Below, piece by piece: positions 748 through 56,951 of a DNA stretch of 64,000 bases. Under the pieces are notes generated by a model. That model did no database searches. It saw only the letters and a list, made by a program, of their open reading frames with translations, and had not been told where the DNA came from. This DNA comes from Clostridiales bacterium (GTDB taxonomy: Bacteria; Bacillota; Clostridia; Peptostreptococcales; Anaerovoracaceae), in assembly GCA_022773945.1 (NCBI GenBank), contig JALFNS010000018.1, positions 2,960-66,959 on the forward strand, read 5' to 3'. Made by a program: the position numbers and the translations under genes. How positions within the stretch are numbered: the stretch's first letter is position 1; every line of letters starts with the position of its first letter.

Positions 748-1467
748 CTATTTAATCGGACTTTTTCCCGGTGTTCCCGGTTTTCTCGGATACTTTGCCG
801 GTGTTTTTTTCTTTTTTGATACTATAACCAGTCTGTGTTCCGTACCCTCCGGGCCGCCGTATGCTTTTTCCACCGACCTGAGACTGCCACCCAGAATCTC
901 AATAGCCTTTGCGGCGTCTGCAATTTCTCCGTCACTTCCGGGTCCTTTGTAAGCGATGAAGCTTCCGCCCTCTCTCACGAAAGGAAGACAGAGCTCCGTC
1001 AGTGTCGACATGTTGGCAACCGCTCTGGACACACAGAGATCAAAAGCTTCTCTCAAGCCCTCGCGGCGTCCCAGCTCCTCTGCTCTGCCGTGAAGCGCCT
1101 GCACGTTGCTCAGTCCGTACTTCTCAGCGAGGCTTACTATTATCTTAATCCTCTTGTTGAGAGAATCAACCAGCACAAACTCCTTCTCAGGATATGCTAT
1201 CGCCAGAGGTATTCCCGGAAATCCGCCTCCCGTTCCCACATCTATAATGCGGCCGGCTTCCTGAAATTCAGGGGTGAAGGCGCACGCCATGGAATCGTCA
1301 TAGTGACCGGCTATGAAAGCATCTCGTTCTCTTATGGCTGTGAGATTGATGCTCTCGTTCAGCTCCAGTATATCCTCCATATAGCCTCTGTATATTGTTT
1401 CCTTCTCTTCGGTCAGCTCCATTCCAAGTCTGCGGAAGGTGTCTCTCAGATTATTGAATTCACTCAC
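748..1467 (-). CDS. rsmG: 16S rRNA m7G527 methyltransferase RsmG (GidB)
   Basis: [32 protein letters not shown] and KYPRKPG motifs. GTG start at 1467 overlaps the mnmG stop. Confidence 0.95.
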
Positions 1468-3343
1468 CCTTCTGTCTCCTTTTCTTCTCAAGGTGTATGA
1501 GCAGCACATTTATGTCCGCCGGCGATACTCCCGAAATTCGCGAAGCCTGTCCCACAGACAGCGGCTTGAACTTATCCAGCTTCTGCCGCGCCTCCAGACG
1601 CAGTCCGTCTATTTCACTGTAATTCATATCCGGACTGAGCTTCCTGTTCTCAAGACGATGGAACTTGTCTATCCTGGCCTGCTGCTTCCTTATATAACCC
1701 TCGTACTTGATCTGAACCTCCATCATGGTTTTCTCATGAGGCAGAAGCTGAGGTCTCTCCGGATCCGCCGGCAGAGTATCATCATAGGTTATCTCCGGAC
1801 GGCGCAAAAGCTCGATGAGAGGTGTGGCACCCTTAATAGGCGTGCTTCCTTTTTCTTCCAGTATGCTGTTTATATCCTCAGGCTTCACTGTCTTGTGTGT
1901 TATGCGCTCTGTTTCACGTGAAACAGCCTCCTTCTTTCTCAGGAATTTAGCATAGCGTTCTTCAGTGACGAGTCCCAGATTATATCCCTTCTCCGTAAGT
2001 CTCAAGTCCGCATTGTCCTGTCTGAGAAGCAGGCGGTATTCTGCTCTGCTTGTCATTATACGGTAAGGCTCCTCCGTCCCCTTGGTTATGAGATCGTCTA
2101 TGAGGACTCCTATATATGCTTCACTCCTGTCAAGCACGAAAGGCTCCTCACCTCTCAGAGAACATACGGCATTTATTCCCGCCATGAGACCCTGAGCGGC
2201 CGCCTCTTCATACCCGGAGCTTCCGTTAAACTGTCCCGCACAGAAAAGACCTTCTATCTGCCTGCTCTCCAGATTTAACTTCAGAGCCAGCGGGTCTATG
2301 CAGTCATATTCAATGGCATATGCCGGCCTTACTATTTCGAGATTCTCCAGTCCTTCTATCGTCTTGTAGAATTCCTCCTGCACATCCTCGGGAAGGCTGG
2401 ATGACATTCCCTGTATATACATTTCATTGGTATATAGACCTTCTGGCTCTATGAAGAGCTGGTGTCTCTTCTTGTCGGCAAACCTGTTTACCTTATCCTC
2501 TATTGACGGACAGTATCTGGGACCCACTCCCTCAATCTGCCCGCCGAAGAGAGCCGACCTGTGAAAATTATTTCTTATAACCTCATGAGTTTTCTCATTG
2601 GTGTATGTGAGCCAGCACTTCACCTGCTCGCGATGAAGCTCCTCGTTCATGAATGAAAAAGGAACAATCTCCTCATCTCCCTCCTGAGGCGTCATCTTGT
2701 CATAGTCGAAGCTTGCAGCCAGGCCGCGGGCGGGAGTTCCCGTCTTGAATCTTCTCATAGGAAGTCCCTTTTCCCTCAGGTTTGACGCCAGCTCAACAGA
2801 AGGTGCCATTCCGTTAGGGCCGCTGTCAAAGGCGCTCTCTCCGATGAAAATTCTTCCCGCCAGGAAGGTTCCCGTAGCCAGTATTACTGCTTTACTCCTG
2901 TAAACAGCTCCCGTGCGAAGCACAACTCCGCAGGCCTTTCCTTTTTCAACAATTATATCAACCACTTCTCCCTGCTTGAGAGTGAGGTTTTCCTGAGCCT
3001 CCAGGGTTTTCTTCATTTCTATATGATAACTGTTCTTGTCAGTCTGGGCTCTCAGAGAATGAACCGCCGGACCCTTGGCTCTGTTGAGCATCCGGCTCTG
3101 AATAAATGTCTTGTCAGTGTTAATTCCCATCTCGCCGCCAAGTGCATCTATTTCACGCACCAGGTGGCCTTTGCCCGTTCCGCCTATGGAAGGATTGCAG
3201 GCCATCATGGCCACAGCCTCCAGATTTATTGAGAACATGACTGTGCTCATTCCCATGCGGGCACAGGCGAGACCGGCTTCGCATCCGGCATGCCCCGCTC
3301 CTACCACAATCACATCATATGTACCCATCACATATTCTTTCAT
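1460..3343 (-). CDS. mnmG: tRNA uridine-5-carboxymethylaminomethyl modification enzyme MnmG (GidA)
   Basis: [33 protein letters not shown] and [17 protein letters not shown] motifs. Confidence 0.98.
1910..1925. promoter_or_regulatory. parS centromere site inside the mnmG coding sequence
   Basis: Second perfect TGTTTCACGTGAAACA. Confidence 0.9.
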
Positions 3344-3360: not shown

Positions 3361-4728
3361 CTACTTGCCCAGGCAGAACCTGGCGAAAACTTCATCTATT
3401 ATATCCTCGGAAACGGTGTCACCCGTTATCTCTCCCAGAACTTCATACGCTTCTCTTATATCTATTTCTGCAAAATCCATAGCCTCACCGGATTCCAGAA
3501 TTTTCCTCGCAGCCTTCAGGGAATCCTCAGCCTTATGCAAAAGCTCAATATGGCGGACATTATTCACCAGCACATCGTCGCTGCGTGAAATTCTGCCGCT
3601 GTATACCTGCTCTTCAATCTTATCCTCCAGCTCGGATATGCCCTCACCGGATGTGAGGACAGTTTCAATAACTGTGGCCTCCGGCAACAGACGTTTAAGT
3701 TCGTCTCTGTCGAGACAGCTGCCCCTGTCCTGCTTGTTAAGGAGAAGAAAACACTTTCTATCTCCTATATGCTCTATGATCATCTCGTCCTCTTCCGTCA
3801 GAGGAGAGCTTGCGTCCAGTATCAGTATTATTGTATCAGCCTTGTTGAAGGCATCCTTTGTCTTCTCTATTCCTATCTTCTCCACTATATCGTCAGTCTC
3901 TCTGATACCTGCCGTATCCGTCAGATAAACAGGTATCCCTCTTATGCTGAGAGCCTCCTCTATAGTATCCCTCGTAGTGCCGGGAATCTCCGTCACTATA
4001 GCTCTGGTTTCTCTGAGCAGAGCATTCATCAGAGAGGACTTTCCCACGTTAGGTTTGCCCACAATCACCATGCTCAGACCTTCTCTTACTATCCGGCCCG
4101 TATCGGCTCCGGACAGCAGTTTTTCAATCATATCGTTTATTGTCGATATTTTATTTATTATTCCTTCCGCTACTATCTGCTCTATATCTTCATCGGGATA
4201 ATCGATGTTAACCGCTATCTCCACCAGAAGGTCCATTATGCTGTTTCTGATTCGGTTTATTTCCAGAGAAAGACCCCCTTCGAGCTGTGACATTGCCACA
4301 TCGAAGCTTTTGTCGGTCCTGGCTTTTATAACATCTATTACTGCCTCAGCCTGGGAAAGGTCCATCCTGCCGTTGAGAAATGCGGTTTTGGTAAATTCAC
4401 CCGGTTCCGCCATACGGGCTCCCGATCTCAACACGGCCTGCAGTGTTCTTCTCAGAGAAACCATACTGCCGTGGCAGTTTATCTCAACCACATCGTCTCC
4501 AGTGTAACTGGCAGGTCCCTTCATATAAACGGCCAGCGCTTCATCTATTATCCTGTCGCCGCCCGGTTCGACTACATGACCGTAGGTCATCCTTCTGTCA
4601 TCCAGCCTGCTGCCTTTGCACCTGAAAACTCTCAGAGCCGTTTCGAGGGCCTCCGGACCGCTGATTCTCACTATTCCTATGCCGCCTTCACCGGCAGCCG
4701 TTGCTATAGCTGCTATAGTATCGTTCAT
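3361..4728 (-). CDS. mnmE: tRNA modification GTPase MnmE (TrmE)
   Basis: [34 protein letters not shown] motifs and C-terminal FCLGK. Confidence 0.98.
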
Positions 4729-7361: not shown

Positions 7362-8768
7362 ATGACATTAAAGATAGACAAGGACAAATGGAAGGACATA
7401 CTTTCTGAAATAAGCGGCGAACTGACATCTGTCAGCTACAAAACATGGTTTCTGCCCCTGATTCCTCTGGAAATCGACGAAAACACGAATACCATGTACG
7501 TGGCTTCGACAGACAGCTTCAAGGTGAGCGTTCTCAACAAAAATGAGAAATACATAGCTCTCCTCGAAAAAGCCATCAAGAAAGTATACAGAACATCATA
7601 CAAAATAAAAATAATACATAAGAACGAATCAGAAATTAAGGCAGCTTCATCGGACAGAAAAAGCAGGAGCACATCGAGAGGTCCGGGAGCTGTTTCTGCG
7701 ACAGGGGATGAAGACCTCTACAACGAGGAATACTTCCTCAATCCCAGATACAATTTCGATAACTTCATAATAGGATCAAACAACAACTATGCCCATGCTG
7801 TGGCACTGGCTGTAGCAGAAACCCCGGCCAAGGTTTACAATCCGCTCTTCATATACGGAGGATCCGGACTGGGTAAGACACATCTCATGCACGCCATAGG
7901 TCACTACATTCTGGAGCACAATCCTGATATGAAGGTTCTCTATGTCTCCTCTGAAATGTTCACCAACGAACTTCTTCAGGCGATAAGAGACCCCAACAAT
8001 TCCAACAGCAGACTGAATTCATTCAAACAGAAATACAGAACCGTTGACGTGCTGCTAATCGACGACATTCAGTTCATCGAAGGTAAGGAAGCCACACAGA
8101 ACGAGTTCTTCCACACCTTCAATACACTCTATGAGCTGGACAAGCAGATTGTAATATCCAGTGACCGCTCGCCGAGCAAGCTGAAGGACCTGGATGACAG
8201 ACTGAAATCACGATTCCAGTGGAACGTCGTAGCCGACATACAGCCTCCTGATTTCGAAACAAGAGTTGCCATACTCAGAAACAAAGCCGAAATGGAGAAC
8301 ATAGACCTTGACGATGATGTTCTGGAGGTTATAAACCTTATAGCCGAGAGAGTCAAGTTCAACATAAGAGAGCTGGAGAGCGCGCTCACGAGAATAATCA
8401 GCTTCTCCAGGGTATTCAACAAGAAGATTACGGTCAAGTTTGCCAAGGACAGTCTGAGAGATATTTTCTCGGCACGTGACGCTGAAATATCGTGCGAAAC
8501 CGTTAAAAAAGCCGTTTGCAAGAAATTCGGCATAAAGCTCACAGACATTGAGTCCTCCAAGAGAAAGAGAGAATACACCTATCCGAGACAGATAGCAATG
8601 TATCTGTGCCGTGAAATGACGGATCTCTCACTTCCCAAGATAGGTCAGTCCTTCGGAGGCAAAGACCACACGACAGTTCTTCACGCATGTGATAAAATAT
8701 CTAAAGAGATAAAAACAAATCCGGTTCTGGCTGAAGATATAAGAAACCTGAAGGATGAGATACAATAA
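7362..8768 (+). CDS. dnaA: Chromosomal replication initiator DnaA
   Basis: YNPLFIYGGSGLGKTHL, LLIDDIQF, NIRELE and FGGKDHTTVLHA motifs. Confidence 0.99.
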   Translation: MTLKIDKDKWKDILSEISGELTSVSYKTWFLPLIPLEIDENTNTMYVASTDSFKVSVLNKNEKYIALLEKAIKKVYRTSYKIKIIHKNESEIKAASSDRKSRSTSRGPGAVSATGDEDLYNEEYFLNPRYNFDNFIIGSNNNYAHAVALAVAETPAKVYNPLFIYGGSGLGKTHLMHAIGHYILEHNPDMKVLYVSSEMFTNELLQAIRDPNNSNSRLNSFKQKYRTVDVLLIDDIQFIEGKEATQNEFFHTFNTLYELDKQIVISSDRSPSKLKDLDDRLKSRFQWNVVADIQPPDFETRVAILRNKAEMENIDLDDDVLEVINLIAERVKFNIRELESALTRIISFSRVFNKKITVKFAKDSLRDIFSARDAEISCETVKKAVCKKFGIKLTDIESSKRKREYTYPRQIAMYLCREMTDLSLPKIGQSFGGKDHTTVLHACDKISKEIKTNPVLAEDIRNLKDEIQ

Positions 8769-23029: not shown

Positions 23030-23269
23030 ATGGCTTACGATAACAAGAGACGTGGCGGAATGAGAAGAAAAAAAGTCTGCCAGTTCTGTGCCGATAAGAC
23101 TAAGGAAATAGATTACAAGGATGTTGAGACTCTGAAGAAGTACGTTACAGAGAGAGGCAAGATCCTTCCTAAGAGAATCACAGGCACATGTGCTATGCAC
23201 CAGAGAGAAGTGACGAAGGCTATCAAGAGAGCCAGAATCGTAGCTCTTCTGCCATACACAGCAGAATAA
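23030..23269 (+). CDS. rpsR: 30S ribosomal protein S18
   Basis: [28 protein letters not shown] and [10 protein letters not shown] motifs. Confidence 0.98.
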
Positions 23270-23278
23270 TCGAGAAGC

Positions 23279-23310
23279 AAAGGCTGTTGCGATATGCAAT
23301 GGCCTTTTTT
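23279..23310 (+). terminator. Rho-independent terminator after rpsR
   Basis: AAAGGCTGTTGC-GATAT-GCAATGGCCTTTTTT. Confidence 0.85.
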
Positions 23311-23318
23311 CGTGAGGT

Positions 23319-23589
23319 TCGCGGCGCTCGTTTTGTGCGGACGATCCTTTGTCTGCAGCTTCACAGTCGCGCCTGCATATGCTACGGCTTAAGTCCTCGT
23401 CGCAGGCAACCGTCCGTTCGTCTTTCGCCGCCCGCCTGTTCGAATGCAGGAAGACCCTGCATTTCTCACCACGGCGCGACGGCTTCCATCCTCACACGGT
23501 TGCAGCTGCTTCTGCGGAAAAGCCGCAGCACATGCAGGCACGACTGCGAAGCCGAGGGCTCTTGCCGCCGCACAAAGCGAGCGCTGCGA
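23319..23589. repeat. 271-bp nested imperfect palindrome (REP/MITE-like or structured RNA)
   Basis: Arms at 23319-23390 and 23520-23589 are largely reverse-complementary. Inner pairs: GCAACCGT/ACGGTTGC and ATGCAGG/CCTGCAT. Confidence 0.8.
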
Positions 23590-23620
23590 TTATGAAAATC
23601 TTAAAGAGACCAAACAAATC

Positions 23621-23886
23621 CTGACAAAAGCTTTATTATCATAATTATTTTGTCAGGTTCTGTGAATATGTCAGAGACTTTTCTGACAAGGATATTTGAA
23701 TAACAGCCTGTCTTGTCAGAAATTCCTGTCATGGCGGGGTTATGGGCAAGTGGACAGGGGATGGAAAGGTCATCGCAGGCCATGATTCTGACAACCCCCG
23801 CGGATATCAGGGTATTCTTGTCAGAATTTAGCCGATTCAAGGCTGGTTCTCTGACAAGATGATTTCATATTTAGAAACTTTGTCAG
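23621..23886. repeat. Phased array of alternating CTGACAA / TTGTCAG half-sites
   Basis: Eight half-sites starting at 23621, 23650, 23683, 23713, 23788, 23818, 23851 and 23880, with gaps of 22, 26, 23, 68, 23, 26 and 22 nt. Confidence 0.85.
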
Positions 23887-23913
23887 AAATCCCTCGGAGC
23901 AAGGGCTGTGGAT

Positions 23914-23965
23914 AGATAAGGTGGGAATGAAGGCCGTGTCAGCCACCTTCATTCCCGCCTTATCT
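23914..23965. repeat. 20-bp-stem hairpin upstream of the gdpP promoter
   Basis: AGATAAGGTGGGAATGAAGG-12nt-CCTTCATTCCCGCCTTATCT (one G.U pair). Confidence 0.75.
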
Positions 23966-24066
23966 GCACAAAGTCCTGCCGAAAAATTTGAACATTACAG
24001 GAATTTTGTTGTATAATATAGGTTACGAAAGTATGCCCGACAGATAATTTGGGAGAACAACAGGAG

Positions 24067-25827
24067 ATGTATGTAGGAAGAGTAGAGAGACTGCTGGCAC
24101 ATTATGCGCCTCTGCCTGTATGTATAGTAAGCAGCCAGGGAAAGGTTACCAGAGCCAGCAGCAGAATCGTGGATGTATTCAAATATGACGGCATAGTTGA
24201 TTACGACATATTCGCGCTCACAGGATTCAAAATCCAGGAGATTGTTGAGGCCGCCGCAGAGGGCAAACCGCTTTATCTGGACAGAAACGACAAGAACTTC
24301 AAGGTTCTGGCCAGCATGATCGGCGAGGGGGAGAGTGCCTCCTGCATTATGGTCTTCATTGACGAGACCCCTTATGTGAAACTGAAGAGTCTCTATAAGG
24401 ACGAGAAGGTGTGCCTGGCCATGGTCAACATTGACAACTTCGATGAGCTGGCATCGAGCACATCCGAAGAGTGCGAGCTGGAATTCACCACAGAAATAGA
24501 CAGATTCATAAGAAACTGGGCCCGAGATCTCGATGCGGCGGTAATCCGCTATAAGGAGAATCTTTATGAGATAGTGCTGACCCATGAAGATGTGGATAAT
24601 CTCATTGAGGACAAATTCTCCGTCCTTGACAGAGCCCGAGAGATAAAGACCGAGGCGGATTTTCCTGTGACGCTGAGCATAGGAATCGGCATGGGCGGCA
24701 AAACTCTGGCGGAGCTGGACGAGTACGCTCAGGATGCCCTGGATATGGCACTGGGTCGCGGAGGGGACCAGGCGGTTGTGAAGAACATCCGCAGCATGGA
24801 ATACTTCGGCGGAAAAACCCAGAGCGTTGAGAAGGGAAACAAAGGCAAATCCCGTATTCTGGGACATGCCCTCAAAGCGCTGATCAAACAGTCATCGAAG
24901 GTGTTCATAATGGGCCACAGAAATCCGGATATGGACTGCTTCGGAGCGGCGCTGGGAATTCACAGAATGGCCGTGTCGGCGGGCAAGGAACCTTATATCG
25001 TTATGGGCCATTACGACGACTCCATGGTGGATATAATATCCGACGCCAAGGATACGGATGGATATGCATTCATCTCGGCTGAGAGGGCTTTGAGCCTGAC
25101 CGATGAAAACTCTCTGGTGATAGTGGTTGATACACACAGACCGGTACTGGTGGAATCGCCGGAGCTGGTTGAGGCGGTGAGCCGTCTGGTTGTTATAGAC
25201 CACCACAGGAAGGCGGAGGATGTGTTCTCGTGTCAGACGCTTTCATATATGGAATCATATGCGTCCTCGGCATCGGAGCTGGTTACGGAGATGCTCCAGT
25301 ATACGCTGGATGACAAGAAAGACCTCTCCAAGGTAGAGGCGGATGCGCTCCTGGCGGGAATCATGCTGGACACCAACAGATTCGCGGTCAAAGCGGGAGT
25401 GAGAACCTTCGAAGCCGCATCATGGCTGAAGAGATCGGGTGCGGATCTGCAGACGGTGAGAAGATACTTCCAGGCGGATTCATCGAACTTCAGAGCCAGG
25501 GCGGAGGGTATAGCCAACGCCAGGATAATCGAAGGGGGAATTGCCATGTCCATATGCAGCAACGTGACGGGCAATACGCAGATAATCAATTCCCAGGTTG
25601 CGGACGAGCTCCTGACTATCAAAGGCATCGAAGCCAGCTTCGTGGCAGGGAGCGACAGAATGGGCGGTACGGTTATAAGCGCCAGATCACTGGGGAACAT
25701 AAACGTGCAGAAAATCATGGAGCATTTCGGCGGCGGAGGACATATGAACACGGCAGGAGCCCGTGTGGACTGTCCGCCGGAGGAAATACTCGACAAAATA
25801 GAAGAATTCTTAAAAACAACACATTAG
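24067..25827 (+). CDS. gdpP: Cyclic-di-AMP phosphodiesterase GdpP-family protein (PAS, degenerate GGDEF, DHH/DHHA1) without N-terminal TM helices
   Basis: ALGRGGDQAVVK, GHRNPDMDCFG, VVDTH, IDHHR and GGGGHMNTAG motifs; located upstream of rplI-dnaB. Start is 24049 (TTG) or 24067 (ATG). Confidence 0.88.
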   Translation: MYVGRVERLLAHYAPLPVCIVSSQGKVTRASSRIVDVFKYDGIVDYDIFALTGFKIQEIVEAAAEGKPLYLDRNDKNFKVLASMIGEGESASCIMVFIDETPYVKLKSLYKDEKVCLAMVNIDNFDELASSTSEECELEFTTEIDRFIRNWARDLDAAVIRYKENLYEIVLTHEDVDNLIEDKFSVLDRAREIKTEADFPVTLSIGIGMGGKTLAELDEYAQDALDMALGRGGDQAVVKNIRSMEYFGGKTQSVEKGNKGKSRILGHALKALIKQSSKVFIMGHRNPDMDCFGAALGIHRMAVSAGKEPYIVMGHYDDSMVDIISDAKDTDGYAFISAERALSLTDENSLVIVVDTHRPVLVESPELVEAVSRLVVIDHHRKAEDVFSCQTLSYMESYASSASELVTEMLQYTLDDKKDLSKVEADALLAGIMLDTNRFAVKAGVRTFEAASWLKRSGADLQTVRRYFQADSSNFRARAEGIANARIIEGGIAMSICSNVTGNTQIINSQVADELLTIKGIEASFVAGSDRMGGTVISARSLGNINVQKIMEHFGGGGHMNTAGARVDCPPEEILDKIEEFLKTTH

Positions 25828-55682: not shown

Positions 55683-55703
55683 TTAAAATGTCTTTTTTAG
55701 TGC

Positions 55704-55732
55704 TTGCAATTCCGCCGGGCCTGATGTAAAAT
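55704..55732 (+). promoter_or_regulatory. Sigma-A promoter (leaderless transcript)
   Basis: TTGCAA-17bp-TAAAAT, then 6 nt to the ATG at 55739; no SD sequence. Confidence 0.65.
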
Positions 55733-55738
55733 ATTACC

Positions 55739-56515
55739 ATGAATTACATTAAATACTATATGGGCGCTCTGAAGCGCCTCCATGCCGCGGCCACGCGTCA
55801 TCTGGCGGAAATCGAGAAAGAACTGAAAACCATGCCCGAAGGCAATTTGCACATCAAGAAGCGAGGGCATGGATATTCCTGCTATAACTATGAAAAAGGA
55901 ATCCAAAGAAGCATATCATCAAAAGATAAGAAAGTTGAGAGGCTTGGGAGAAAGCGCTTTCTTGAAAGAGATGCGACCTTTTTCAGAACCGTCTGTGAAT
56001 CGCTGGAGCGGTTGTTTGCCAAGGTAGAGGACAACAGGAAGGATACAGCTACACATACAGGACTGATAGACATGTTCGGCGAGGCAAGAATGAAATACAC
56101 GAGAGAACAACTTGCCTGGCTCACATCCGTTCAGACCGCTGATAATCTGAGACCGGAAGAGAAAAAATACAGGACCAGGAGCGGCATTCGGGTGCGTTCT
56201 ATGTCGGAACGATATATAGCAGATATACTCTATGACTTCGGTATATTGTTCATATATGAACCGGAGCTGATTCTGGGTGGCGAGACATTCGTTCCTGACT
56301 TCGTAATACTTCGGCCGGATGGGGAAATTATTATCTGGGAGCATTTCGGTCTTACTAGCATCGAAGAATATAGGCAGAGAATGGAATACAAGCTGGCGAA
56401 GTACAGGGAATACGGCTTCTATCAGCATACTAACCTGATCTGCACCTACGAAGATGATATTGAAGATAAAGCAAGAATAGAAGCCATAGTAAAGGAACGA
56501 CTCTGTCGAATATGA
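55739..56515 (+). CDS. Hypothetical protein with N-terminal helical region and C-terminal PD-(D/E)XK / Vsr-like nuclease domain
   Basis: TRSGIRVRSMSERYIADIL..YEPEL..VPDFVI..WEHFG..Y...KLAKY..G..LICTYED fits a restriction-endonuclease-like fold. Confidence 0.7.
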   Translation: MNYIKYYMGALKRLHAAATRHLAEIEKELKTMPEGNLHIKKRGHGYSCYNYEKGIQRSISSKDKKVERLGRKRFLERDATFFRTVCESLERLFAKVEDNRKDTATHTGLIDMFGEARMKYTREQLAWLTSVQTADNLRPEEKKYRTRSGIRVRSMSERYIADILYDFGILFIYEPELILGGETFVPDFVILRPDGEIIIWEHFGLTSIEEYRQRMEYKLAKYREYGFYQHTNLICTYEDDIEDKARIEAIVKERLCRI

Positions 56516-56525
56516 AGGATGCACA

Positions 56526-56836
56526 AGTATCCAAAATTAAAGAAATCACAAAAAATAGATACAGTCCACTTTGCTTTGAAAAGCAGACTGTATCTATTTT
56601 TTATGAAAAGATGAAATCTGGATACATACACCACTGTCGTGATGAGTTCAAAACACCGAAGCAGATTCCATGTGTATCTATATATGCGAATTACAGCAAA
56701 AATAGATACATACCGACGACGAATAATAGCCTGACTGCATCTATTTAGGGAAGAAATCGAGAATCTGGATACATAGAGCCATTCAGCTACAGCCTGCATG
56801 TATCTAGAATCGAAGAAAACCCTCGAAATAGATACA
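56526..56836. repeat. Phased array of alternating (A/G)GATACA / TGTATCT half-sites
   Basis: Ten half-sites starting at 56526, 56557, 56589, 56620, 56673, 56704, 56736, 56767, 56799 and 56830. Confidence 0.88.
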
Positions 56837-56951
56837 TACATGTACTTTGACCGACAATCACAGGTGCGACCGCCGTCAGGCCCCGAAAACGCTTTAATAA
56901 GTTAAACCTCTACCTGTTTACTGCCCAACCATTTTTTGCCAAAAGTATAGT

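Follow-up and report, generated by a model that had tools for sequence, protein, structure and literature searches.

Clusters of short, regularly placed DNA sites are part of several well-described bacterial systems. In the plasmid centromeres of F (sopC/SopB) and R1 (parC/ParR) a whole unit of 43 bp or 11 bp is directly repeated and conserved, beside genes of the parA/parB type; in iterons, units of about 17-22 bp recur in direct orientation with a spacing of about 22 bp, the operators of repressors are palindromes of about 17 bp whose half-sites are contiguous, and repetitive extragenic palindromes (REPs; considered here together with bacterial interspersed mosaic elements, BIMEs, and REP-associated tyrosine transposases, RAYTs) are palindromes of 20-40 nt, conserved over their whole length in hundreds of dispersed copies. 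Here we describe an array of eight short, alternating half-sites that lies upstream of gdpP, at positions 23621-23886 of a 64,000-nt stretch of contig JALFNS010000018.1 (the whole stretch is hereafter called the window), and compare it with arrays found beside genes of a protein family that is represented in the window by the open reading frame (ORF) 55739-56515. We propose, with moderate confidence and from sequence comparisons, that the array would most likely be a multi-site docking platform on double-stranded DNA for a member of this family encoded in trans.

Plasmid centromeres have in common with the array the many short sites, some of them inverted pairs, the helical register suited to a cooperative complex, and a specificity that diversifies rapidly together with that of the cognate protein; unlike them, the array conserves only its half-sites, its putative binder is of nuclease fold, and its neighbours are rpsF, ssb, rpsR, gdpP, rplI and dnaB, with no parA, parB, parR or rep gene. 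The iteron and operator arrays of replication initiators and phage repressors are likewise phased clusters of sites beside the gene of their binder (arrays of the family abut the promoter of their own gene at two loci, L116 and L122), whereas the half-sites upstream of gdpP lie about 30 bp apart. REP/BIME elements likewise alternate a short intergenic repeat over two alternating spacer lengths, and a Y1 transposase gene stands before one homologue of the family gene; unlike REP/BIME, no further copy of the array at >= 90% identity was found in the four metagenomes that hold the genome, in which only 23381-23477 was matched. Clustered regularly interspaced short palindromic repeats (CRISPR) also show a regular period (about 63 bp in the array) and constant short elements between variable segments of constant length, but they consist of identical direct repeats of 24-48 bp, whereas the elements of the array are 7-11 bp long, inverted and only eight in number, with no cas genes nearby. 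As the array lacks their defining traits, we rejected its identification with CRISPR, REP/BIME, a plasmid centromere or iteron cluster, CodY sites and the families of Rfam (Rfam 15). Nothing relevant, including any description of the gene-linked arrays of the family, turned up in the literature searched for the motif, for the names of the PADLOC candidates and for the concept, and distant blastn of the whole insert against 72,556 plasmids and 50,697 phages gave nothing meaningful.

Eight alternating half-sites upstream of gdpP

The 266 bp at 23621-23886 hold eight exact 7-mers in strictly alternating orientation, CTGACAA on the plus strand (starts 23621, 23683, 23788 and 23851) and TTGTCAG (starts 23650, 23713, 23818 and 23880), with gaps of 22, 26, 23, 68, 23, 26 and 22 nt between them; these exact coordinates confirm the alternation and the gaps given by an initial annotation of the window. 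The spacings between centres (29, 33, 30, 75, 30, 33 and 29 bp) bear out its unit of 62-63 bp and its long gap extended by 42 bp (4 turns). Taken as a whole, the array (23616..23892, strand not applicable) has the half-site consensus (t)TCTGACAAg and spacers that are unrelated in sequence, while the extended core TCTGACAAG, which the annotation had also put forward, is exact at four of the eight sites and carries one mismatch at two and two mismatches at another two.

The half-sites fall into four pairs. The outer two have their centres 29 bp apart: pair 1 (23621..23656; CTGACAA at 23621-23627 and TTGTCAG at 23650-23656), which lies inside a 23-nt imperfect palindrome, and pair 4 (23851..23886; CTGACAA at 23851-23857 and TTGTCAG at 23880-23886). 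The inner two, with centres 30 bp apart, have longer perfect arms, of 11 nt in pair 2 (23683..23719; TTTCTGACAAG / CTTGTCAGAAA) and of 10 nt in pair 3 (23788..23824; ATTCTGACAA / TTGTCAGAAT), the latter being placed 75 bp (33 + 42) from pair 2. An extra, off-register TGTCAG is found between sites 2 and 3 (23669..23674, minus strand, reading TCTGACATA on that strand).

The array is far from chance. CTGACAA/TTGTCAG was counted 24 times in the window against 8.4 expected, a number reached by none of 100 shuffles, and one third of these copies fall within the 266 bp of the array, where the 16 copies outside it would predict about 0.07. A blind scan of every 7-mer in the window recovered only two alternating inverted arrays, the one upstream of gdpP and another at 56.5 kb, and 30 block-shuffled windows yielded no alternating chain of >= 4 sites. 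Tandem Repeats Finder reported nothing at the array.

The mirror symmetry of the gaps, pointed out earlier, is real; however, as sites 1-4 and sites 5-8 are offset by 167-168 bp and recombine as direct repeats, it is indistinguishable from a translational repeat. The halves aligned with similar scores in direct and in inverted orientation, and both scores were mostly accounted for by the sites alone. An origin of the array by tandem duplication of 168 bp was rejected, as the direct alignment of the halves was no better than the inverted one and the spacers did not align beyond the sites. The additional TCATGGC/GCCATGA pair that the annotation had seen in the long central gap is indeed present (23728-23734 and 23779-23785), but a 7-nt inverted repeat has, by our rough estimate, a chance expectation of about 10% in a gap of 68 nt, and the pair is gone from a variant with a deletion of 168 bp.

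One geometry, private motifs and a protein family

The array at 56.5 kb (56553..56840) starts 38 nt after ORF 55739-56515 and has nine alternating (A/G)GATACA half-sites with a period of 63 bp (centre spacings of 33, 30, 54, 30, 33, 30, 33 and 30 bp). A third array, on another contig (L114, 4778-5029), lies beside a 72% homologue of this ORF, with the half-site TCACGTGTACAGT and spacings of 36, 28, 47, 28, 36, 28 and 36 bp. Both of these gene-linked arrays resemble the one upstream of gdpP in their alternating half-sites of 7-13 bp, their split of about 30 and 33 bp, their longer gap of whole turns and their unrelated spacers, as well as in being intergenic and upstream of an operon; they differ from it in the adjoining family gene and in motif (TAGATACA and CACGTGTAC versus CTGACAA).

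The three arrays repeat every 62-64 bp (about 6 helical turns) and contain one long gap each, enlarged by 42 bp upstream of gdpP, by 21 bp at 56.5 kb and by 11 bp in L114 (about 4, 2 and 1 turns). Consequently, the distances between sites of the same orientation amount to 62, 105, 63 and 63, 105, 62 bp upstream of gdpP (6, 10 and 6 turns of 10.5 bp), to 63, 84, 63 and 63 bp at 56.5 kb, and to 64, 75 and 64 bp in L114. Since the long gaps add approximately whole helical turns, same-orientation sites keep their helical register, which places all half-sites on one face of the DNA; as a feature of the class, a phase-preserving irregular gap is suggestive, being drawn from three arrays only. The 56.5-kb and L114 arrays aligned with one another and with the array upstream of gdpP no better than shuffled sequence, so what they have in common is geometry and not sequence. 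We defined the class by >= 4 alternating inverted half-sites of 7-13 bp, unrelated spacers and a 62-64 bp period in which centre distances of about 29-30 and 33-34 bp alternate, and the array upstream of gdpP shows all of these. The spacings compared across the three arrays thus support the earlier proposal that it belongs to the same class as the 56.5-kb array with a different specificity. Members of the family at <= 42% identity have other array spacings.

The same geometry was also encountered on a metagenome contig of 27% GC (L048, 5108-5367), where TGTCAGACA and TGTCTGACA alternate at 30, 66, 30, 33, 30 and 64 bp with a period of 63 bp; there, however, the spacers resemble one another, and no family gene lies within 13 kb.

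ORF 55739-56515 (plus strand) encodes 258 aa, predicted to comprise a prefoldin-like N-terminal part and a C-terminal domain of PD-(D/E)XK fold, and has no match in Pfam or NCBIfam. A profile built from 19 homologues retrieved 9,731 representatives at 50% identity (E <= 1e-3), 3,891 of them at E <= 1e-30 and most of these full length, with 240-290 aa. The residues R153, S156, E157, Y173, P186, D187, F188, E201, H202 and G204 are invariant in the family, and T7 endonuclease I gives a weak alignment (E 0.2) with the stretch RSxSE...YE...PDF. The AlphaFold model (mean predicted local distance difference test score, pLDDT, 89.6) has a pair of long helices, separated by three beta strands, ahead of an alpha/beta domain; Foldseek matched this domain weakly (E 0.007-0.3) to the R2 endonuclease domain, Card1, McrC, TnsA and restriction-endonuclease-like proteins, and the N-terminal part, in the same weak range, to prefoldin. 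The C-terminal domain moreover shows clear homology to the C-terminal ends of two defence candidates in PADLOC, PDC-S68 (E down to 6e-28) and PDC-S69, and the acidic residues of PD-(D/E)XK (E157, D187, E201) are kept. Thus, the predicted fold together with a weak sequence match supports the earlier PD-(D/E)XK assignment, and the model depicts a prefoldin-like coiled coil joined to a PD-(D/E)XK, T7-endonuclease-I-like domain, either of which could be the DNA reader.

Family genes have a promoter in common, TTGAC(T/A)-N17-TGTAAAAT (window 55700-55741, there with TTGCAA; L116 2950-3003, L119 2946-3002, L122 2930-3003 and L125 2943-3003). In the window the ATG of the family gene comes only about 7 nt after the -10 box, which suggests that its mRNA may be leaderless.

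An inverted-repeat array with a private motif stands beside the family gene at six of six loci (the window, L114, L116, L119, L122 and L125), and at seven of seven if L079, described below, is included. The array is downstream of the gene in the window ((A/G)GATACA) and in L114 (TCACGTGTACAGT), upstream of it in L116 (ATTATCG, reaching the -35 of the gene), L122 (CCTTGAA) and L125 (CTGACCTGA), and on both sides of it in L119 (AACGTGAA); the diversified family of proteins and arrays that the initial annotation had surmised was therefore encountered at every family locus examined. In three species the family gene occupies the same position between nadE and pstS and is accompanied by three different motifs. 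This constancy of locus indicates that the gene is vertically inherited and not mobile, and points to vertical descent with a specificity that may have co-evolved.

A precedent for one gene serving several arrays came from a metagenome scan that used the DNA pattern CTGACAA-N-TTGTCAG-N-CTGACAA alone (the species of the window is outside the collection scanned) and returned 90 stretches, most of them single chance hits or unrelated repeat families. L079, found through this pattern only, encodes a family member of 255 aa (tblastn E 6.5e-8; hmmsearch E 4.5e-15; hhalign probability 97%, E 7e-11, over residues 18-221), and only 11 nt separate the stop codon of its gene from a CTGACA/TGTCAG array that follows it. 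Two more loci from this assembly, L013 (array between dapF and fhs) and L068 (array upstream of mraZ), have no family gene, yet the array spacing of 12, 18, 12, 19, 12, 18 and 12 is identical in all three. Their tetranucleotide profiles correlate at 0.88-0.93 with one another and at <= 0.73 with any other locus, so the three probably come from one genome and would represent a single gene serving several gene-less arrays. The same scan of viral contigs gave four hits, none with the geometry of the array upstream of gdpP.

Two other observations were made among these stretches. In the upstream region of mraZ (L068 7100-7220) a second doubled array, with the word TACTGAC-TTTTT x2 ... AGTCAG x2, directly precedes the CTGACA array, and two specificities would thus stand side by side. 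Many contigs of high GC (0.68-0.72) carry a four-site TTGTCAG/CTGACAA element of the <><> type with fixed gaps of 27, 20 and 27 or of 28, 20 and 28 (L007, L019, L026, L029, L042, L046, L052, L055, L060, L084, L088 and L090; also L003, L004, L031, L056 and L085), a conserved element that is possibly coding.

Supply in trans, decay or cleavage

We reason that a two-fold-symmetric dimer would occupy two inverted half-sites with centres about 30 bp, i.e. three helical turns, apart, and that the next dimer would follow about 33 bp further on, which would bring the eight half-sites onto one face of the helix. The cooperative complex thus formed would cover about 270 bp and end about 100 bp upstream of the gdpP-rplI-dnaB promoter, with the prefoldin-like N-terminal part as a plausible device for oligomerisation and spacing. 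The binder would be supplied in trans by a paralogue elsewhere in the genome, as we infer because no family gene adjoins the array and the only family gene of the window has a different motif. Candidate roles would be the modulation or insulation of the gdpP-rplI-dnaB promoter, or an architectural one. The sites and their spacing are kept while the spacers are unrelated in sequence, which we count in favour of a docking platform; binding of a protein to the arrays, the stoichiometry of that binding and an influence on gdpP or on the organisation of the chromosome are all putative and read from sequence.

If this docking platform is real, a widespread unannotated family would be paired with a DNA target that can be read directly, something seldom available when the function of a protein is unknown, and private motifs on a conserved helical geometry would provide orthogonal protein-DNA pairs of natural origin. 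Judging by the gene-less copies, the proteins may act at several chromosomal places, including the promoter region of the operon for the c-di-AMP phosphodiesterase GdpP and the replicative helicase. In a wider and more tentative reading, which we regard as possible though doubtful, the large family (thousands of clusters), with a prefoldin-like coiled coil for oligomerisation and a head of restriction-endonuclease fold, would form an undescribed DNA-organising system in which each protein has co-evolved with its own phased array, the arrays being either linked to their gene or scattered in the promoter-bearing spacers of housekeeping operons (gdpP-rplI-dnaB, mraZ, fhs). Together they would make up a nucleoprotein network that acts in trans at several loci, in a regulatory or an architectural role, and for which no counterpart has been characterised.

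Several observations weigh against the docking platform. No family gene lies beside the array: among the six-frame ORFs of >= 100 aa in the window, profile and tblastn searches matched the family only at 55730-56512, and this one gene in 64 kb goes with a different motif. The arrays of L079, L013 and L068 are unlike the one upstream of gdpP in geometry (doubled hexamers, 61-bp period), and the CTGACA motif common to them proves nothing alone because the search demanded the hexamer. The canonical ExK lysine is replaced in the family, in which E-H-x-G is invariant. A deletion of 168 bp halves the array in some strains, so that eight sites are not essential, and the array is absent from relatives with 87%, 81% and 70% GdpP identity, so conservation lends function no support. 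Of the two alternatives in the earlier statement that the array is either orphaned or served in trans, service in trans has a precedent in L079 with the gene-less L013 and L068; in the window itself no cognate gene was found.

These last points come from comparisons of strains and relatives. At the array locus, near-identity extends over seven contigs of the species, but one of the seven, L100, has lost exactly 168 bp between sites 3 and 7 and is left with an array of four sites. The missing segment (23682..23849) is bounded by the 9-nt TCTGACAAG common to sites 3 and 7, and in one pig-gut metagenome (run X5) the deletion joint 23681>23850 (depth 3.7) was recovered beside a full-length contig (depth 5.3). 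Another strain (L102) has nine substitutions within 23841-23900 and none in the half-sites, a weak indication that substitutions avoid them (P ~0.09, by our own estimate).

Searching the genome collection with GdpP yielded only one true relative, at 81% identity (L095). In it an amidohydrolase gene, without array, lies between rpsR and gdpP; at 87% GdpP identity the end of a surface-protein gene precedes gdpP, again without array (all 19 contigs break there), and at 70% the rpsR-gdpP spacer measures 154 bp and has no insert. In blast comparisons, conservation across the relatives is confined to the ~45 bp immediately before gdpP, from the -10 box into the 5' leader, with homology resuming at about 24005 (judged by eye, the match extends to the -35, from about 23982). 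As the insert has no counterpart in relatives, the array is a lineage-specific insert in a hypervariable spot. The initial annotation had named two observations that would speak against its view, a spacing not conserved in relatives and a lack of association with PD-(D/E)XK genes; the comparison of the rpsR-gdpP interval that it had suggested confirms the former, the whole insert being absent, but the linkage of arrays to PD-(D/E)XK genes contradicts the latter, and the view is not overturned. In its own right, the spacer (23270-24048, compared with L095 and L104-L113) is a hotspot of change among close relatives.

The main rival takes up precisely this variability: the array would be a relic of the same class, its gene lost and its sites unbound, decaying neutrally in a spacer that tolerates insertions. 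The insert is young and lineage-specific in a hypervariable spacer, its 168-bp deletion is polymorphic, a dispersed-repeat hairpin flanks it and no family gene was found in the window nearby, all of which would suit a relic. However, all eight 7-mers are still exact, whereas the gene-linked array at 56.5 kb has exact 8-mers at no more than six of its nine sites, and strain substitutions spare the sites, if weakly so. A search of 23270-24050 found no pseudogene remnant of the family gene, of PDDEXK_2 or of the relative's amidohydrolase, and the 81% relative, too, has CTGACAAG upstream of gdpP: two copies, 18 nt apart (3871-3896) and the only ones in 9.7 kb, lie just upstream of the gdpP promoter, one just 5' of a terminator hairpin and the other in the loop of this hairpin. 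We regard a relic as rather unlikely; should the array be nothing else, it would still be a record of arrays of this kind arising, being halved and disappearing in a hypervariable spacer.

The endpoints of the deletion, which fall exactly in two half-sites, bear on a further explanation, in which the half-sites would be nicked or cleaved by the nuclease-fold protein, with the arrays as sites of recombination or rearrangement, similar to shufflons or to the ends of mobile elements. The acidic residues kept in the C-terminal domain, its likeness to TnsA and T7 endonuclease I and its homology to the C-termini of PDC-S68 and PDC-S69 would fit a cutting enzyme, as would the neighbourhood of the 72% homologue, which is co-operonic with a PDDEXK_2 'transposase' and in L115 follows a Y1 transposase gene. 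Nevertheless, the 9-nt direct repeat at the deletion is the longest available and lets replication slippage explain it equally well; no inversion joints were seen in four DNA metagenomes, whose contigs drop rare variants; the canonical lysine is missing; and the constant nadE-pstS locus in three species indicates vertical and not mobile inheritance. Cleavage or recombination at the half-sites appears improbable. The genes adjoining the array include no recombinase. As for the neighbourhood itself, the 72% homologue in L114 (3001-4595) overlaps the downstream PDDEXK_2 (Rpn-like 'transposase') gene by 13 nt, and the Y1 gene of L115 (153-1890) is of the IS200/RAYT type; these transposase neighbours hint at a link to mobile or recombination functions.

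The gdpP promoter region and flanking elements

The array belongs to an uncultured pig-gut member of Bacillota, and the same sequence is present in the metagenome-assembled genome (MAG) GCA_028720665.1 and in many pig-gut metagenomes; the GdpP of the window is 68% identical to that of a Lentihominibacter MAG. The flanking genes are, as annotated initially, rpsR (23030-23269) and gdpP (24049-25827), and the array sits inside a spacer of 780 bp that separates rpsF-ssb-rpsR from gdpP-rplI-dnaB. About 15 kb upstream of it, where the GC skew switches sign, are dnaA (7362-8768) and dnaN.

The array ends about 100 bp upstream of the gdpP-rplI-dnaB promoter (23988..24017, plus strand; TTGAAC-18-TATAAT), and its half-sites resemble the -35 hexamer (seven promoter-like hits against 1.3 expected). 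Both facts would be compatible with a platform on which a general regulator of the host, for instance CodY or Spo0A, binds cooperatively and controls gdpP-rplI-dnaB, and the core TTGTCAGAA is superficially similar to half a CodY box or to the 0A box of Spo0A. On closer comparison the resemblance fades: the best matches to the 15-bp CodY box AATTTTCWGAAAATT have 4-5 mismatches, with only two positions at <= 4, so the alternative of CodY raised by the initial annotation found no support; non-palindromic 7-mers about 30 bp apart are unlike the 15-bp CodY palindrome; and TGTCAGA and the 0A box TGTCGAA disagree at two of their seven positions. Outside the array, moreover, there is no clear excess of the 7-mer (16 copies where 8.4 are expected, the largest shuffle also giving 16), and relatives with the same gdpP promoter have no array. 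A host regulator is thus very unlikely to account for the array.

Even less probable, in our judgement, is a structured RNA, i.e. a small RNA or an untranslated-region element of four hairpins. Each convergent pair could make a stem of 7-13 bp, and a 301-nt stretch folds better than its shuffles (z -3.6), yet Rfam returned no match, either at the gathering score over the whole window or at a relaxed threshold over 23200-24100, apart from hairpin-like microRNA noise. In four metatranscriptomes, contigs covered rpsF-rpsR to 23277 and gdpP from 24047 and none lay between, weak evidence given the low depth. The 22-23 nt that would form the loops are not conserved, the sequence of both arms stays exact beyond what pairing asks for, and the sister arrays lie on either side of their gene. 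A search for tRNA and tmRNA genes found none.

On the left, the rpsR gene is followed by a terminator-like hairpin and a T run (23279..23307, plus strand; found by an inverted-repeat search), and metatranscriptome contigs of the rpsF-ssb-rpsR operon end at 23269-23277. Directly after this terminator comes a GC-rich, near-perfect hairpin of 290 nt (23308..23597; -154.6 kcal/mol, z -9.8). Its core (23381-23477) was matched at 90-95% identity by several further contigs of the same pig-gut metagenomes, in both orientations, with unrelated flanks and at raised depth, and is a dispersed repeat resembling REPs or miniature inverted-repeat transposable elements (MITEs). On the right, a hairpin at 23902..23977 has arms of 32 nt and a loop of 12 nt that holds TGTCAG (23937-23942), and its arms carry the DnaA-box-like words TGTGGATAG / TTATCTGCACA. 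Farther away, two more exact copies of CTGACAAG (minus strand, 3035-3042 and 3110-3117) have the same orientation and lie 75 nt apart within the minus-strand ORF 1460-3343, probably by coincidence.

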